Assembly: GCA_022813865.1 (NCBI GenBank) | Contig: JALDZX010000007.1 | Location: forward strand, 558,001-622,000 | DNA: 64,000 nucleotides | Direction: 5' to 3' | Source: Xylographa opegraphella | Taxonomy: Eukaryota | Shown: piece by piece, positions 37,432 to 46,171 of the stretch | Layout: each line of letters opens with the position of its first letter | Position numbering within the stretch: position 1 is the stretch's first letter | The notes under the pieces: model-generated | What the model was told of the DNA's origin: nothing | The model's input: the letters and a program-made list of their open reading frames with translations, nothing else | Databases searched by the model: none | Made by a program: the position numbers and the translations under genes

Positions 37432-38563
37432 ATGACTACTGGTAAGTTCCATCTTCAGATAGCACTGCGTGTCGAACTAACAGCAACACAGCCCATCGAC
37501 CCACGTTTGATCCGGTATGTACATGGATTGCCATCAAAACTGCGGAGGATGATTGTGATAGGCCCGTGGCAAAGATGCACAGAGAGGCCCAGCATACCAT
37601 CAAAGACTCCTACCGGCCCATACCCAGCTTAAAACAAGGTGCGACTGCACAACTGATCTACTACTCCAATGCTGAATTTGTGCAAGACAACCTGGCCAAG
37701 GAGGCAGCGCCGATCCTCCAGTTCGGAATCTACGAGCGCAACTACTTGAAGCGGAAGCAGCACATTACTCGAAGACCAAAGGATCTTCTGCGACAAACGG
37801 AACTGCGCCCTCATCAATAGCACCTTCTACAGCCAAACGACAAATTAAGGCTGAATCTGAAGGGATTAGTGCCGAAGAGGAAGACAACGAAGCTATGAGA
37901 CGGCGGATTTTAGAGGAGACAAGGGATATCGACGCCGACTCGGACGCCTCCAGGACTGAAAGTAGTGAGGATGAAAGGTTCGAAGGAAAAGCCATACATC
38001 TCCTCGGAATTGACTGATTCTTGGGTAGTGACGAGGAGGACGAGACAGCAGAGCTTCTACGGGAGCTGGAAAAAATAAAGAAGGAAAGAGCGGAGCAACG
38101 TGAAAAAGAAGTACGTTCATCCACCCAGGAAATTACGTCGGGTCGAATACTGAATGCTCGCGTGGTGCTAGGAACGAGAAAGGGCTGCAGAGGAGCAGGA
38201 GAAGAGGGAACATGATATCGCACTCGGCAATCCGCTGCTGAACCCTACCAAGGACTTTAGTGTGCGACGAAGGTTGGTAGCGCAGACACCATTTAGGGCA
38301 TGGCTGATGGATCCCACAGATGGGACGACGATGTCGTGTTCAAGAATCAAGCACGGGGAACGGACGATAAAAGGAAAAAAGAGTTTATCAATGTACGCTT
38401 CTTCTCGAACTTGGCCGCCTCGCGATCAGTTTCGCAAAGCTGACTCTGCCTCCAGGACCTGCTGCGTTCTGATTTCCATAAGCGCTTCATGGTGAGTACA
38501 GGTTCTGCCCACGAAAACTTGGGGCTTGACTAATCAGGGCAAAAGAGCAAATATGTCCGATAA
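37432..38563 (+). CDS. CWC15: Pre-mRNA splicing factor Cwc15/Cwf15
   Basis: MTT|AHRPTFDP|ARG..., LLRELEKIKKERAE, IALGNPLLN, RR|WDDDVVFKNQARG, DLLRSDFHKRFM|SKYVR*. Confidence 0.93.
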
Positions 38564-39002
38564 TACCCAATCGGTGGAGTGGTATAGTCGGCTATTCGGT
38601 ATCGTTAGTGGTTTACCACATAGACCAAAGCATGCTTTTCAAATCAGCTTCCCTTTTTCCGCAAAGTCCTGATTTGTGAGCCTTGTATGACTTATAACCA
38701 TGGAGTTCTTCTCCAGCTCACTTAGGGACGACAGCTCTGCAGGGACCTTCTAGACTCGATCCAAGCGCCATCGGAACCACTGTACGACGATTTACAGACC
38801 GAGCTCAGCCGACAGCAGCTGACGATGCGGGACTTGCGCCTGGTTCATTCCACGGGAGCTTCCCCAACCAGCCAATGATGGTTGGGCCTGGACATGCTCT
38901 GGCGGGATCGATGCTGTACGTATGCTTGGCGGGGTTCGATGCTTAGCGCGTGTTGGATCACAGTCGCATGTTCTGCAGCAACGCCTAACCCTGCTCTCTT
39001 GG

Positions 39003-39260
39003 CCCCTCACTTTGCGACCCCTCCACGATCTAGAACCTGCCTACGGAGTACCTGCCTTCCGAAAGCCATCATCTAGCATGAGCTTGCCGCACTCCAGCTC
39101 GCGATGCACCGCCGACAGGCTCTAAGTCACACGGAACTTGATTCACGCCCGGCTGCCAGCATTCCATGCTGACGACCCTCACACCCACCTTGCTGCGAGC
39201 AGGGCCCTTTCTTATACCCCTCCCTGTCCCCCCTTTTGCTCAATTGATGGATATGCCCCT
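39003..39260 (+). promoter_or_regulatory. Cluster of five STRE-like (CCCCT) motifs upstream of the Gly-rich gene
   Basis: CCCCT at 39003, 39018, 39217, 39230 and 39256, all within 325 bp of ATG 39324. Confidence 0.4.
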
Positions 39261-39323
39261 TGACGAACCGTGACTTCTGCATCAATTTATCTCTTACCCC
39301 ATCTTTCTCCCAACACACACACA

Positions 39324-40597
39324 ATGTCTGACTACAATACCCAAGTGAGCAGTGCTGAGCTCGACTGGCAGTTCTCGGTACTGATGATCGTAGGGTGGAG
39401 GTATGGGCGGTGGTGATTCTTACGACGTACGACGGATTGCCTTAATTTCTTGGGCACAGACGTTAACCCTCATCAGCAGTCATCCGGCGGAGCTGGTCAA
39501 GGCGGCATGGGTGGTAGAATGGGAAGCGGTGACTCCTACGACGTACGTCGCCATCCCGAGCTTTTCTTCCCGCAATACCCGGATTGACTTCGAGCAGCAG
39601 TCTTCGGGCGGTGGTGGAATGGGTAGCGGAATAGGCGGTGGGGACTCCTACGACGTAAGTCACTATCTTGAGCTGCTGCATCCCGAATTTCTAAACTAAC
39701 GTCGATGAGCAGTCGTCAGGCCGCGGTGGTCAAAGTGGCATGGGTGGTGGAATGGGTGGCGATGACTCTTATGACGTGAGTAGTCGCTACTGCTATGGAT
39801 GCTGGAGACGTAAAGCTGACTGCCGCAAAGCAATCTTCGTCAGGCGGCGGCATGGGAGGAGGTCAAGGAATGCGAGGAAGCAGCGGCATGGGTGGTGGAG
39901 ACTCATACGATGCATGTCGACGACTGTAGTCTCCACCTAGACTTGGGCTGAGCTGACGTTGAAACAGCAGTCGTCCGGCCAAGGCATGGGAGGTCGCTCA
40001 TCGGGCGGTATGGGTGGTATGGGCGGCAATGATTCGTACGGCGTTAGTAGTCTACACGGACTCCCATGTGGGCTTCCTTCAGCTGACTCGCGACCCTCAG
40101 TCATCTGGCCAGAGTGGTATGGGTGGCGGCGATTCGTACGGCGTTAGTGCTCCATGTGATCTCCCTTTTCAGCCTCACGTAACTGACTCTGAACCCTCAG
40201 TCATCTGGCCAGAGTGGTATGGGTGGCGGCGATTCGTACGGCGTTAGTGCTCCATCTGTGCTCCTGTTCCAGCTGCCTCGAACTGACTCTTTACCATCAG
40301 TCATCTGGTCAAGGAATGGGGGGTTCGTCTGGTGGCATGGGCGGCGGGAACGATAGCTACGATCAGTCGAGCTCTGGTGGAGGTGGTGGGTGTTCTGGCT
40401 GTCCAACAACAGGAGATGCCCTTTGCTGATAGCTGTTCACAGGATCTACCAAGGACAAAATCATGGACAAAGTTGGCGGTATGTTCCACAAAAAGGAGCA
40501 ACAGAGCGGAGGCATGGGTGGCGATTCATACGATAGCAGTCAGCAAGGCGGCCAGGGCGGAGGCTACGGTAACGACCAAAGCCAGAGCAACTACTAA
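39324..40597 (+). CDS. Gly/Ser/Met-rich repeat protein (hydrophilin/dehydrin-like), 11 exons, ~239 aa
   Basis: Exons 39324-39344, 39394-39426, 39477-39542, 39598-39654, 39713-39775, 39831-39911, 39968-40042, 40101-40142, 40201-40242, 40301-40385, 40443-40597. Introns are 49-58 nt with branch-site-like motifs and splice to an open frame of (Q)SSG..GMGGGDSY[D/G] repeats. Confidence 0.85.
40093..40255 (+). repeat. Recent 100-bp-period duplication of an exon plus flanking splice sites
   Basis: 40093-40155 is identical to 40193-40255 (63 nt). Confidence 0.95.
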
Positions 40598-41040
40598 GCT
40601 CGTCTCAGAATACCTTCCCGAGGTACTTGGTATCAGCTTGCTTTCAATCGAGGTAAGGTGGGGGAAACCCAGTGCATTACGACACTCTTTATAGTCACCT
40701 AAGCATTACCTTACCTGTCCTACATCTTCCACCCTGTGGCTCGTGAGGCGCTAGCTGAGAGTTTCGATACCGGGCAAGGTGACTAGGTCAGATATTTATC
40801 ATCGTCATTTGAATCCGTGAACCCTTCGTAGCTGAATTAGGTATTAAAGGTTCCTTCTTCCATTCAGTAGTGTCGTACTATGTCCCCAGTCGAGGAAGTA
40901 ATCAGCATGATATCAGTATTTGCACCAATCGTATCTTTCTAGTCTTGAAGCCCGCTCTCTGCACTATCTGTAACGAGTGGGGTTGTTCCCTTAGTGTTCT
41001 TGACTGAATTTGTTGCCACCTAAATCGGCCTCTATTCGCC

Positions 41041-42193
41041 ATGCAATCCGGCATTACTGGTACGCAGCCGTTTTGCATGAACACTCTGGAGACTAATTGC
41101 CGACATAGCATCTCAGGAACTCCATGATGCTTTCAACACGCTCGTCTCATCTCCCACCACGCAGCGGGGCCTCGTAGCAAGCATCAAGAACGAACAACTT
41201 GTGCCCATCGAAGTCATCGCTCAATCGTCGAACGACTTCTTTGAGGATATTGGAGCGCTCCAACCTCTTCTCAAAGATAATGAAGCCGCCTACATAATCG
41301 TGCGTCGATACCAGAACAGCCCAAGCGGCTATGCGGCCGTCACTTACGTCCCAGACACGGCCAACGTTCGGCAGAAGATGCTTTTCGCCGCTACGAGACT
41401 CACGCTGGTGCGAGAGCTGGGGACGGAGCGGTTCCGGGACACAATCTTCGTCACTACGAAGCAAGAGCTCACGGCTGAGGGGTGGCGGAAACACGACCAG
41501 CACGGGGAGTTGCAAGCCCCGCTGACGGAGGAGGAGCAGACACTACAAGGGGTGAAGGAAGCGGAGGCAGAAGCGGGACGGGGTACAACTTCCCGGAGTA
41601 GTCATGTCAGCAGTGGGCTCAGCTTCCCGATATCAGGGCACGCATTGAGTGCTCTGAAGGCACTGACGGAGGGAGGCGATAACCTTGTTCAGCTGGTACG
41701 CGCTACTCTAAAATCTGTCCTGAAATGTACCGCGTCACTGAATGTCCTACACAGATGATCGACGTAGGCCGCGAAGCCATCGAGCTCGTCGGCACGAGTA
41801 CGACGGAAGCCGAGGAGCTCTCGTCCCACATATCCGACAGCGACCCCCGGTACTCCTTCTTCCGATACAACCACGAACACGAGGGCCACGAGCTGTCCCC
41901 CATTGTCTTCATCTACACTTGCCCGTCCGGGTCGAAGATCAAAGATCGAATGATCTACGCCTCGTCAAGGGCTGGGGTCATTGCTGCCGCAGGCAAGGAA
42001 GCCGGCGTGGAGGTCGCAAAGAAGGTATTGTCGCTCCGGGGGGAGTCTCAGAGTCCGGCTGACATCTTCTGGTATTTAGTTGGAGGCATCAAGTTCATCT
42101 GAGATCACAGCGTCAACCATTCGGGAGGAGTTCAAACCCCAGCAGGAACAGAAGCAGACGTTTTCGAGGCCGAAGCGGCCTGGGAAGCGGTAA
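41041..42193 (+). CDS. TWF1: Twinfilin (two ADF-H domains)
   Basis: MQSGIT|ASQELH, YVPDTANVRQKMLFAATRLTLVRELG, FIYTCPSGSKIKDRMIYASS, ending FSRPKRPGKR*. Confidence 0.93.
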
Positions 42194-43015: not shown

Positions 43016-44204
43016 ATGTCCGCCAAAAATGTCAATGGTCCTGGAGGCAAGAAGCCTGCTTCGGCCGCTACGAATCTTATCGGTAGCAATTTTTCCTCTA
43101 CAACACGCTCATGGCAATACTGATAGCCCTTCCATAGCTGGTGGGACCGCGGGCATGATAGAGGCTCTAGTATGTCATCCACTAGGTTGGTCATATCTAT
43201 AGCGTATGAGGCGACTCTACTCACCGTCTCAGACACTATCAAGGTTCGGATGCAGCTTTCGCGGCGCGCAAGAGCACCAGGGGTACGTTCCTTCAGCACT
43301 CTACCTCGGCATCCATAACTCTGATTGGCATGGGGACAGATGAAGCGAAGGGGCTTCTTGACAACTGGGAAAGAAATCATCAGAAAGGAGACGCCTCTGG
43401 CGCTGTACAAGGGCCTTGGGGCTGTGATGACGGGGATTGTTCCGAAAATGGCGATCCGCTTTACATCCTATGAATGGTACAAACAATTGATGGCGGACAA
43501 GGAAACCGGTGCCGTGAGTGGGAGGAGCACATTCTTAGGTGAGGTCGTTGAAACCTTTCAAAGTTTCCATCGCTCACAACACCACTTTAGCTGGGCTGGC
43601 TGCTGGAGTTACAGAAGCCGTAGCGGTCGTCACACCAATGGAAGTTATCAAGATTCGGTTACAGGCTCAATACCATTCCATGGCTGATCCTTTGGATATT
43701 CCCAAATATCGTAATGCTGCACATGCACTTTACACCGTTCTGAGAGAAGAGGGGTTCGGCGCAATATACCGAGGTGTTGCTCTGACCGCTTTACGGCAAG
43801 GCACGAATCAAGCCGTCAACTTCACCGCCTACTCCGAGTTCAAGTCCCTATTGCAGCAATGGCAACCTGCCTACCACGACAAGGAACTTCCAAGTTACCA
43901 GACCATGCTAATTGGACTGGTCAGTGGAGCTATGGGACCGTTGAGCAACGCTCCGATAGACACCATTAAAACGAGACTACAACGAACGCCTGCTCGAGAG
44001 GGAGAAACAGCCATGTCGAGGGTAAGAGCTATTGCCAGGGACATGTTCAAACAAGAAGGCTTCCATGCGTTCTACAAGGGCATCACACCGAGAATCATGC
44101 GAGTTGCACCGGGTCAGGCTGTGACGTTTACGGTGTATGAATATGTCAAGGGGAAGCTCGAGCATAGTAATTTGGCGATAGTGGGCGGTTCATATGAGGA
44201 GTAG
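43016..44204 (+). CDS. SFC1: Mitochondrial succinate/fumarate carrier (Sfc1/AcuL)
   Basis: ATNLI|AGGTAGMIEALVCHPL|DTIKVRMQLS, GIVPKMAIRFTSYE, DPLDIPKYRNAAHA, ITPRIMRVAPGQAVTFTVYE. Confidence 0.93.
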
Positions 44205-44646
44205 TCTGCATGATGGACTGTCTCCACTGGAAGAGCCGTCTGGAGCGTGTCGATATTGTATACAAGTCCATATGCCGCAACTAGTGAAAGCTTTCGCAGC
44301 GCACCATTGAAATCTAAGCTTGCTGAGGATATACGGCTTCGACAATAGCCTACCAACCCCTGGGCGTTCTGCTGGCAACCCAAGATAGCATCCGTTGGCA
44401 TTTTGTTTTCGCTTTCGAGACCACTGCTCTGAGCGTGGGTAGTTTTGTATTGCAACCTGCAAACGCCGTTCCAGAGACAAGTGGGAGTATGCATCTCTTG
44501 CTCTATCTCCACAAGCCAGTCGGTTCAGCTTTGCCGGCCTAGGTGTCGTCTGAGACTCACCATACAGCCCGGCAACGAAGCCCATCAGCGTACTATCACT
44601 TCCAACCAGGGTTTCTCTTCAACAAGCTCAAGCTCCCTCACCTCGA

Positions 44647-45348
44647 CTAACACAGTCCCTCCACCCCCCCTCCCCCACTCTCCCCCTCCCCCCCCTCCCT
44701 CTCCCCCTCCCCCCCCTCCCTCTCCCACATCTCGAACTCCCACTCCACGCCCCCCTCCTCCCTCCTCCCCTCCGGCACCACCTCCCCCACCCACCGATCC
44801 AACTCCCCCTTCCTCCTCCTCACCCACCCCCCCTCCCCGCCCCCCAACCTCAGCGGAAAAAAAGTATCACACTCGAAATCGGTCCACACCCGCGTCAACA
44901 ACACGCGCCGACACCCCCCCCCCGCCAGCGCCGCGGCATAGATCTCCGCACCCCCAATCACAAACACGCGATGGACGTCCCGCCCCGCCAGCACCTCCCA
45001 CCCCTCGCTCAGACTCCGCACCGCATACGGGCCCTCCTCCACGGCCCCCGCTCCTTTGTCAACGTGCTCCAGCGCCCCCCGCCGCGTCACTACCACATTC
45101 ACCCGCCCCCGCAGCGGCCGCGCAGCGGCCGGGATGCTCTCCCACGTCTTGCGGCCCATCACTACGGCGTTGAGGCGCCCCGCCGGCGCCCGCCGTGTCA
45201 CGCGCGCGAAGTAGGCCATTTCGGAGCGGAGGGGTGGCCAGGGTAGGGTGGAGCGGTGGCCGATGCCGAGGGTGGAGTGCGTGGCGGCCACGAGGAGCGT
45301 GAGCGGTGGGGGTGGGGGCGGGGGCATGCTGGGAGGGGGGGAGGGCAT
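44647..45348 (-). CDS. DFR1: Dihydrofolate reductase
   Basis: LGIGHRSTLPWP, EMAYFARVT, NAVVMGRKTWESIP, RPLRGRVNVVVTR, VFVIGGAEIY, DFECDTFFP. Start is probably 45348, not the upstream ATG in the ORF track. Confidence 0.93.
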   Translation of the reverse strand: MPSPPPSMPPPPPPPLTLLVAATHSTLGIGHRSTLPWPPLRSEMAYFARVTRRAPAGRLNAVVMGRKTWESIPAAARPLRGRVNVVVTRRGALEHVDKGAGAVEEGPYAVRSLSEGWEVLAGRDVHRVFVIGGAEIYAAALAGGGCRRVLLTRVWTDFECDTFFPLRLGGGEGGWVRRRKGELDRWVGEVVPEGRREEGGVEWEFEMWEREGGEGEREGGEGESGGGGVEGLC

Positions 45349-45529
45349 GTGAGTGCGTGGGTGGGTGAGTGAGGTGAATTGGGGGTTGTTGATCAGCGGG
45401 TGGGTTTGGGTGAGGGTGGTGGTGTTTGTGTTGTGTAAGGTAAGGTTGGTGAGAGATGGGACGTTGTTCATCTACCTAAGCATATCAAAATCCCCGCAGA
45501 TCCCTACCGCGACTAGCGGGCGAAAAGCC

Positions 45530-46171
45530 CTAGCCCGATTCCCTAGCATCAAGGACACGCTTTTCTACGGCTCTGAGCCCGTCCTCTCGCCCACCGCGCC
45601 CATGCTCCCTGCCCCCATCCCTCTCCGCCAATGCCCGCAACCCCACCACCACCCCCCTCGCACTCTCCTCCGCCGCTCCCTGCCCCTCCCCCCTCCCCAG
45701 CGTGTCCAGCTTCCCAAACAGCCACGCCTCCTTCAGCGCCCGCGTCAGCGCGAGGATGTCCTCCGCCGCTCGCACCTATGGCACACGCGTGCTCGGTCAA
45801 TCGGCTATTCACCACCACTGGCCTCGGAGAGCCGGATGGGAGGGGAGGGGGAGGGGGTACGGTACCAGTGCCGCGGTCTCCACTTCCATCTGGTACGCCT
45901 CCACGGCGGTCGTGATGAGCTGGGAGGTGGACATCTTGAAGGGGGGCTTAGCGGGAGGGGAAGGAGGGGGTTGGGAAGTAGGGGGGGGGGGGGGAGGTAC
46001 GGGCGCGAGGGCGACGATGTTTTCGAAGCGGCGGAGGAGTTGCGCGACGGGCGCGGTGGCGCGGTCTGTGCTGGGTGAGTAGGGGTGCGTGGGTTGGGGT
46101 GTTGGAAGGATGGGGAAAGGTGGAGGGGGCTGACCTAGCAGCGCGGCGGAGGTTTGCTTCGACGCGTCCAT
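45530..46171 (-). CDS. MED22: Mediator subunit Med22 (Srb6)
   Basis: QLLRRFENIVALA...AYQMEVETAAL|VRAAEDILALTRALKEAWLFGKL. 2 introns. Confidence 0.85.

Follow-up and report, generated by a model that had tools for sequence, protein, structure and literature searches.

The forward strand of Xylographa opegraphella contig JALDZX010000007.1 (assembly GCA_022813865.1) carries, in the 64-kb stretch that was analysed (positions 558,001–622,000; hereafter the window, to whose first letter all coordinates refer), an intron-rich locus which is very probably a real spliced gene, as judged from its DNA. This locus (39324–40597) consists of 11 exons with a coding sequence of 720 nucleotides (nt), open from ATG to TAA, and would encode a protein of 239 amino acids built of glycine-rich repeats around the motif DSYD or DSYG. 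The closest described kind of protein is that of the fungal DDR48/Cprp stress proteins with DSYGS repeats, which the original prediction for this locus did not name. As a whole, the interpretation of the locus as a real intron-rich gene for an acidic disordered repeat protein, which may be a divergent member or an analogue of the DDR48/Cprp class and would work in stress as proposed below, has in our judgement about an even chance of being correct.

Gene structure and splice signals

The gene model was built from the three forward-frame translations of 38900–41100 together with candidate donors, branch motifs and acceptors, and the exons were joined by coordinate. Its parts are as follows.

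39324–39344, +: exon 1, 21 nt, with the start codon (MSDYNTQ)
39394–39426, +: exon 2, 33 nt (GGGMGGGDSYD)
39477–39542, +: exon 3, 66 nt, single repeat ending in DSYD; first codon CAG, a possible alternative acceptor
39598–39654, +: exon 4, 57 nt, single repeat ending in DSYD; first codon CAG, a possible alternative acceptor
39713–39775, +: exon 5, 63 nt, single repeat ending in DSYD
39831–39911, +: exon 6, 81 nt, 1.5 repeats ending in DSYD, followed by the sole GC-AG intron
39968–40042, +: exon 7, 75 nt, 1.5 repeats ending in DSYG
40101–40142, +: exon 8, 42 nt, SSGQSGMGGGDSYG, identical to exon 9 at 42/42 nt
40201–40242, +: exon 9, 42 nt, SSGQSGMGGGDSYG
40301–40385, +: exon 10, 85 nt, with an intron-less repeat junction DSYD-QSS, ending in phase 1
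40443–40597, +: exon 11, 155 nt including the TAA stop, with a Lys-rich segment, a further repeat and a Gln/Gly-rich tail ending in NY
40445–40498, +: the sole non-repetitive segment STKDKIMDKVGGMFHKKE, within exon 11
39345–40442, +: span of the ten introns, with donor, branch and acceptor signals
39345–39393, 39427–39476, 39543–39597, 39655–39712 and 39776–39830, +: introns 1–5
39912–39967, 40043–40100, 40143–40200, 40243–40300 and 40386–40442, +: introns 6–10

None of the 11 exons contains a stop or a frameshift, and the start codon lies in the context CACACAATGTC with an A at position −3. Introns 1–9 are in phase 0 and intron 10 is in phase 1. The original prediction had described 11 exons with phase-0 introns 1–9, introns 2–9 placed directly after DSY[D/G], one repeat in each of exons 2–9 and an uninterrupted SYD-QSS junction in exon 10, and the coordinate-joined model agrees with all of these statements, the junction being found as DSYD-QSS and exons 6 and 7 containing 1.5 repeats. 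It had also proposed that internal exons can be skipped or duplicated in frame, which is borne out by exons 2–9, as the length of each is divisible by three and the frame is kept when any one of them is skipped or duplicated. A change in the number of units through exon skipping is thus structurally possible.

The ten introns are 49–58 nt long, nine of them with a GT donor and one with a GC donor, and each possesses a CTRAY-like or TTRAC-like branch motif about 9–14 nt before a YAG or AAG acceptor. The lengths of nine of them are not multiples of three, while intron 10, the exception, carries in-frame stops; retention of any intron therefore breaks the frame or reaches a stop, and retention of intron 10 ends the protein ahead of the Lys-rich segment. 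The only non-GT donor of the gene is that of intron 6 (GCATGT at 39912; GCATGT...AACAG). Introns of the GC-AG type form a known minor class, and the remaining positions of the intron 6 donor agree with the consensus. Tandem CAG/CAG acceptors end introns 2, 3 and 6 (39474–39479, 39595–39600 and 39965–39970), so the Gln at the start of exons 3, 4 and 7 is ambiguous and up to three Gln residues of the product are uncertain. Acceptor choice of the NAGNAG type could make this Gln optional, and a Gln start looks dispensable, as exons 5, 8, 9 and 10 begin directly with SSG.

As a control for intron style, a Xylographa protein was aligned to the neighbouring succinate/fumarate carrier gene, from which four introns were read off. 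These introns are roughly 47–56 nt long, with the donors GTAGCA, GTTGGT, GTACGT and GTGAGG and branch motifs of the CTGAT/CTCAC type, and the introns of the repeat gene match the style of these four homology-verified introns.

The distribution of the repeat motifs goes beyond chance. In a six-frame translation of the window, all ten [DN]SY[DG] motifs and 13 of the 14 GMGG motifs lie within 39400–40523 on the + strand, and the changes of frame between motifs along the locus coincide exactly with those which the introns require. When the window was scanned uniformly for complete sets of intron-like signals, the locus contained 14 sets per 1274 nt, the maximum of the + strand (mean 3.5 per 1274 nt; 95th percentile 9), with every one of the ten modelled donors represented; since the opposite strand reaches 15 sets elsewhere in the window, the density of intron signals is not unique by itself. 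Codon choice in the joined exons is non-random, as GGT and GGC account for 73 of 93 Gly codons and TAC for 12 of 13 Tyr codons.

Selection and growth of the repeat

Selection was examined in the last nine codons of each unit (XMGGXDSY[D/G], where X represents any amino acid) in ten units, with 45 pairs pooled. The pooled proportions of synonymous (pS) and nonsynonymous (pN) differences are 0.79 and 0.20, respectively, giving an in-frame ratio of 0.25, whereas reading in the two alternative frames gives 1.58 and 1.79. A one-codon offset in two of the ten blocks raises pN, and the real constraint is therefore stronger than this ratio shows. Ser is encoded by all six of its codons and Asp by both, from which it follows that what has been conserved, and for a long time, is the protein sequence.

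The gene grew by tandem duplication of units of about 100–120 nt, each composed of one exon and one intron. The youngest of these duplications was located with Tandem Repeats Finder.

40093–40308, +: youngest tandem duplication of the [exon + intron] unit, period 100 nt, 2.2 copies, 88% matches

No mismatch separates exons 8 and 9 over 42 positions, whereas introns 8 and 9 have 15 mismatches over 58 positions (Fisher P 1.3e-4); comparison of intron 7 with introns 8 and 9 gives 21 and 22 mismatches, respectively, over the same length. Introns 7–9 have diverged mostly in their interiors, with both splice sites and the branch point preserved. Frame-specific constraint, together with constant exons beside diverged introns, is the signature of a spliced and translated gene. 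The identity of exons 8 and 9 includes synonymous sites, although the introns beside them differ by 26% and the older units are near-saturated (pS 0.79), and it exceeds what selection at the protein level predicts. This suggests either gene conversion or a nucleotide-level constraint on micro-exon recognition.

Properties of the predicted protein

The 239 residues comprise 38.9% Gly, 20.1% Ser, 9.2% Asp, 8.4% Met (20 residues), 8.4% Gln, 5.4% Tyr and 2.1% Asn; 16 residue types are used, and Cys, Trp, Leu and Pro are absent. The hydrophilic N-terminus (MSDYNTQGGG) is, by inspection, not a signal peptide. These values agree closely with the original prediction, which had given about 239 residues, about 40% Gly, one non-repetitive segment and no signal peptide, Cys or Trp. 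The grand average of hydropathy (GRAVY) is −1.033 and the isoelectric point (pI) is 4.05, with 23 acidic and nine basic residues. By the charge–hydropathy rule, these values fall on the unfolded side, and the protein would be intrinsically disordered.

The repeat region consists of about 11 units of 14–27 residues, each with a Gly/Ser/Gln/Met spacer of the form (Q)SSG...GMGGG followed by DSYD or DSYG, so that D-S-Y is kept in ten units and Tyr recurs every 13–27 residues. DSYDQSS occurs five times, DSYGSS three times and DSYDSS twice. DSYGSS always bridges a predicted splice junction (exons 7/8, 8/9 and 9/10) and is preceded by GG or GN.

Similarity to the DDR48/Cprp proteins

To our knowledge, the yeast DDR48 gene has no introns. 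The repeat unit is described as NNXDSYGS in DDR48 and as (N/D)(N/D)(N/D)SYGS in Cprp (PMC10512284), and these proteins are reported to be disordered, to have an excess of S, N, D and G, and to score as prion-like in PLAAC (PMC10512284, PMC8617954). SYG is their dominant [G/S]Y[G/S] motif and is present in multiple repeats (PMC8617954, PMC10512284). Putative homologues of DDR48 are described across the Pezizomycotina, with 16–26 SYG each in five listed species, and a DDR48-like set of 18 fungal and Allomyces proteins contains 6–45 SYG and almost nothing else (PMC10512284, Table 1). The similarity criterion applied in that study is a BLASTP E-value below 1e-5 against DDR48 or Cprp, and overexpression of either protein slows growth (PMC10512284). 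DDR48 of Candida albicans is reported in P-bodies and G-bodies (PMC8617954), and DDR48 homologues are tied to alternative splicing in a survey of expressed sequence tags (PMC3925392). Cprp is given as 280 amino acids and DDR48 of Histoplasma capsulatum as 315.

The protein predicted here has several features in common with DDR48/Cprp of Saccharomyces cerevisiae, C. albicans, H. capsulatum and Clitopilus passeckerianus, as judged from the described motifs and the published alignment. Both are highly hydrophilic and, by prediction in the present case, cytosolic, with short repeats around Asp-Ser-Tyr; both share the core DSYGSS, of which three copies are found here; and both combine a long repeat region with one short Lys/Asp-rich non-repeat segment at one end. 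Both are also rich in Ser, Asp and Gly, and the length of the present protein is within the family range. Its values for these residues and for hydropathy (Ser 20%, Asp 9%, Gly 39% and GRAVY −1.03) fit the DDR48/Cprp description, whereas its Asn content does not.

The present protein differs in that SYD (seven) outnumbers SYG (three). Its spacers are rich in Gly, Met and Gln (GMGGG) instead of Asn and Asp, DSYGSS is not preceded by an N/D run, and the units are 14–27 residues long compared with about 8. Gene structure differs as well, with one intron per repeat (ten) here and three introns in the cprp gene (PMC10512284).

Upstream region and proposed function

The region upstream of the start codon contains the following elements.

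39003, 39018, 39217, 39230 and 39256, +: five CCCCT motifs resembling the stress response element, in one orientation, within 39003–39260
39212, +: TTATA

CCCCT/AGGGG is the fungal stress element of the Msn2/4 type. Five CCCCT sites within 321 nt upstream compare with about 0.6 expected (122 sites per 64 kb, both strands), an excess which is suggestive only, as CCCCT is clumpy and also clusters elsewhere in the window. The 70-nt leader before the start codon is 67% pyrimidine. Two upstream ATGs (39247 and 39253) open a short open reading frame (ORF) to a TGA (39247–39273), about 50 nt before the main ATG, which could be an upstream ORF if the transcript starts upstream of 39247.

On the preferred reading, the locus would be an intron-rich nuclear gene of a Xylographa-like lichen-forming ascomycete, the expression of which may be raised by stress through the upstream CCCCT elements. 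The product, cytosolic with a pI of about 4, would be unfolded and highly hydrated, and its regularly spaced, Asp-flanked Tyr residues may act as weak multivalent 'stickers' within flexible spacers. Upon water loss or other stress, it could shield proteins and membranes, or enter or form reversible condensates, a behaviour that has been suggested for DDR48 and further proteins with [G/S]Y[G/S] motifs. A role as a drought or stress protectant is plausible on these grounds. With its 20 Met residues, the protein might also respond to redox state, as is suggested by an analogy to yeast Pbp1/ataxin-2 and its Met-rich domain, in which reversible Met oxidation controls phase separation according to the title of Kato et al. 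2019 (cited in PMC10237644); the likeness is one of composition only, that of a Met-rich disordered region, and the Lsm and LsmAD domains are absent here.

A more far-reaching and rather improbable extension is that lichen-forming fungi possess an unannotated class of exon-modular protectants, distinct from DDR48, which act as sensors of redox and hydration state as well as protectants. Each micro-exon would then add one Tyr sticker and one Met-rich Gly spacer, owing to the phase-0 symmetry, unit number would be adjustable through splicing or unequal crossing-over, and the 20 Met residues would tune condensation or shielding to the oxidative burst of drying and rewetting.

Homologue searches and alternative explanations

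Besides the clustering of CCCCT elsewhere, several observations weigh against the interpretation of the locus as a real gene of the DDR48/Cprp kind. The evidence for the splice junctions consists of sequence signals and selection tests, and intron 6, if unspliced, leads to a stop after five further codons. Exon 11, compared with longer proteins, has no relative in a library of 5.8 billion proteins and no true relative among 1.84 billion representatives, where two spurious matches were rejected, one being a mistranslated repeat and the other a bacterial surface protein. With a profile of the repeat unit that has exon 11 as its first row, 7999 candidates of the 5.8-billion library were scored and none reached E ≤ 0.001. 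No Pfam family was found for exons 3, 5, 6, 7, 10 and 11, the six of the 11 exons with at least 20 amino acids to which the scan was applied (exons 1, 2, 4, 8 and 9 are shorter). The top helical hydrophobic moment of the protein (11-residue window) lies within the Lys-rich segment (0.55, median 0.18), but an amphipathic helix in this 18-mer is not supported statistically, since 1806 of 5000 shuffles reach its hydrophobic moment. The 13 Tyr residues are found in SYD seven times, in SYG three times and in GYG once, so the dominance of SYG described for DDR48 is not seen; the Asn content of 2.1% does not fit a family called Asn-rich, and the Met content of 8.4% (20 residues) is no stated feature of DDR48. 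The protein is accordingly best described as a variant resembling the hydrophilins and the DDR48 type, with the latter of which it may share common descent, rather than as a proven DDR48 member.

The negative homology results are weak, since the queries were single exons or a profile of exons and the words that define the family (SYGSS and YGSSG, as DSYG/SSG) are split by introns here. The 5.8-billion library includes proteins from four Xylographa species, and none of these is like exon 11, which means either that orthologues have escaped annotation or that this C-terminal part is specific to the lineage. The original prediction of a cryptic gene which ORF-based annotation would miss is in line with the two protein libraries, in which exon 11 is unmatched, and with the lack of any ORF of at least 150 amino acids in any frame of 38244–41081. 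An opposite-strand ORF or a larger fused gene at the locus was considered and rejected, as none is present and the downstream ADF/cofilin gene is separate. Six-frame motif searching found no paralogues within the window, the Protein Data Bank (PDB) sequence search with exon 11 gave no match, and Rfam assigned no family over the whole window. A protein-atlas feature search ranked a hypothetical Ascomycota cluster first and Gre1p next, the best score of 0.80 falling short of the level regarded as meaningful, and the same atlas gave no usable match for exon 10. In the paper library that was searched, no paper was found with the literal peptide motifs, nor one pairing DDR48 with lichen.

Metagenome data were scanned with exon 11, giving 598 pattern matches of which none was confirmed, and with a degenerate DNA pattern for MGGGDSY[D/G], giving 24 loci, all of which were screened (five in detail) and none of which is a relative. 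Among them, contig L004 (frame 1, about nt 340–520) contains GNMGGGYGNMGGGDSYG within a protein whose N-terminus is hydrophobic, and contig L019 (− strand) contains GGMGGGDPYGGMGGGDSYG as the C-terminal tail of a larger protein. As these two are unrelated, Gly/Met spacers with an Asp-X-Tyr-Gly sticker recur in unrelated eukaryote-like proteins.

The protein may instead be a lineage-restricted orphan, a disordered hydrophilin of lichen fungi which shares DSY(G/D)SS with DDR48 by convergence and which would still have a role in stress or desiccation. This explanation is possible, though unlikely in our judgement. It agrees with the failure of every search to find a relative, though one library includes Xylographa proteins, with the prevalence of SYD over SYG in an Asn-poor and Met-rich protein, and with the GMGGG-D[SP]YG runs of L004 and L019, which indicate that the motif arises independently. 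A caution in PMC10512284 (Supplementary Figure 9, note 2) points the same way, where the authors say that the DDR48-like proteins they compiled might lack true homology. However, searches by single exon are nearly blind to the DSYG/SSG words, and both the six-residue core DSYGSS and the overall architecture equal those of DDR48. It is improbable that the locus is a decaying or silent repeat which is no longer properly spliced or expressed, for example through a change of GT to GC at the intron 6 donor: the sole non-GT donor with its early read-through stop and the lack of any product with this C-terminus in two protein libraries would be expected of such a locus, whereas all other signals are intact, the 11 exons are free of frameshifts and stops, purifying selection in frame is strong, and the GC donor is of a kind that functions as a minor class elsewhere.

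The RTX nonapeptide has the consensus GGXGXDXUX, and an acidic calcium- or metal-binding repeat protein with an RTX-like unit was also considered, as GMGGGDSYD fits four of the five fixed positions by inspection, the pI is 4.05 and the 23 acidic residues are mostly paired around Tyr. A partial fit is, however, expected by chance in a sequence with 39% Gly, the spacers between units vary in length so that a contiguous-nonapeptide beta-roll cannot form, the signal peptide is absent, and the scanned exons have no match in Pfam, which holds an RTX model. RTX-like calcium binding is thus highly improbable and was rejected.

Relation to other protein classes

Hydrophilins are operationally defined by a Gly content above 6% and a hydrophilicity index above 1 (PMC11277543), and the designation of the product as a hydrophilin in the original prediction holds by this definition, with 38.9% Gly and a GRAVY of −1.033, the latter passing its limit only narrowly. 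The protein resembles the hydrophilins Sip18, Gre1, Stf2 and Hsp12 in these two limits, in being predicted to be unfolded and in its proposed role in surviving water loss. Hydrophilins are, however, a physico-chemical class rather than a family, and the protein has no sequence relation to the members tested through Pfam; in particular, no Hsp9/Hsp12 profile matches the six scanned exons.

The term 'dehydrin-like' does not survive as a statement of membership. Pfam includes the dehydrin family as well as models for CON-6, CON-10/KGG, GRG1 and Hsp9/Hsp12, and exon 11 has no Pfam match at E ≤ 10; the check on CON-6, CON-10 and GRG1, a match to any of which would have removed the novelty, returned none for the scanned exons. 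The consensus of the plant K-segment contains an IMDK[IV] core, and the Lys-rich segment resembles it in this five-residue core only. Plant dehydrins are similar in being Gly-rich, disordered stress proteins with a Lys-rich segment containing IMDK[IV], and differ in that the protein predicted here has a single such segment, no Y- or S-segment in the plant sense, and no support for an amphipathic helix.

The low-complexity domains of the FET family (FUS, TAF15 and EWSR1) likewise contain regularly spaced Tyr in a Gly/Ser/Gln-rich disordered sequence, an analogy that the DDR48 literature also draws (PMC10512284, section 9). In the present protein, unlike in these, only four of 13 Tyr residues belong to [G/S]Y[G/S] motifs, the Tyr residues have Asp neighbours, and there is neither an RNA-binding domain nor RGG boxes. 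The run of very short symmetrical exons, each skippable in frame, recalls the micro-exon genes of Schistosoma with exons of 3–81 bp (bioRxiv 10.1101/2023.06.21.545858). These genes have long introns (up to 5 kb) and secreted products, compared with introns of 49–58 nt and no signal peptide here, and, unlike in them, each exon here corresponds to one repeat unit, so the gene is not of this type.

Neighbouring genes

Xylographa belongs to the Xylographaceae (Baeomycetales, Lecanoromycetes) and is lichen-forming. The lineage of the window is evident from the exon at 43539–44204 of a neighbouring gene, which shares 95% identity with Xylographa trunciseda, 93% with X. vitiligo, 93% with X. pallens and 91% with X. 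bjoerkii, while other Lecanoromycetes match it at 83–90%; the window is thereby placed in or near this genus. The neighbours of the repeat gene are ordinary, comprising a CLC channel, a beta-lactamase-family ORF, an ADF/cofilin-domain gene, the carrier and DHFR, and the repeat gene lies between the second and the third of these.

41081–41758 (ORF), +: ADF/cofilin-domain gene (Pfam PF00241, E 1.3e-13), about 450 nt downstream, a separate gene
43016–44204: succinate/fumarate mitochondrial carrier gene with four short introns, 91–95% identity to Xylographa species

The first exon of the ADF/cofilin gene apparently begins near 41043. The region 44400–46100 is rich in G+C (62.5% in 44001–46000) and contains overlapping long ORFs on both strands around the DHFR-domain ORF (44647–45471, − strand). 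AGGGG/CCCCT clusters are found there as well, with about 10 sites on the − strand within 44667–45005 and about nine on the + strand within 45841–46128.

Biological significance

The locus shows clearly how a repeat can grow when units of one exon and one intron are duplicated, in which the exons remain constant while the interiors of the introns decay. If genes with an intron in every repeat and exons of 21–85 nt are overlooked by standard fungal gene prediction, the lack of matches to exon 11 would be in keeping with this, and low-complexity stress proteins may thus be under-counted. Lichen fungi survive near-complete drying, and few fungal protein protectants are known from them. This locus provides a concrete candidate, with defined coordinates and exons suited to primer design. 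If the link to DDR48 is true, it would extend a poorly understood family to the Lecanoromycetes, with a distinct chemistry of Met/Gly-rich spacers.

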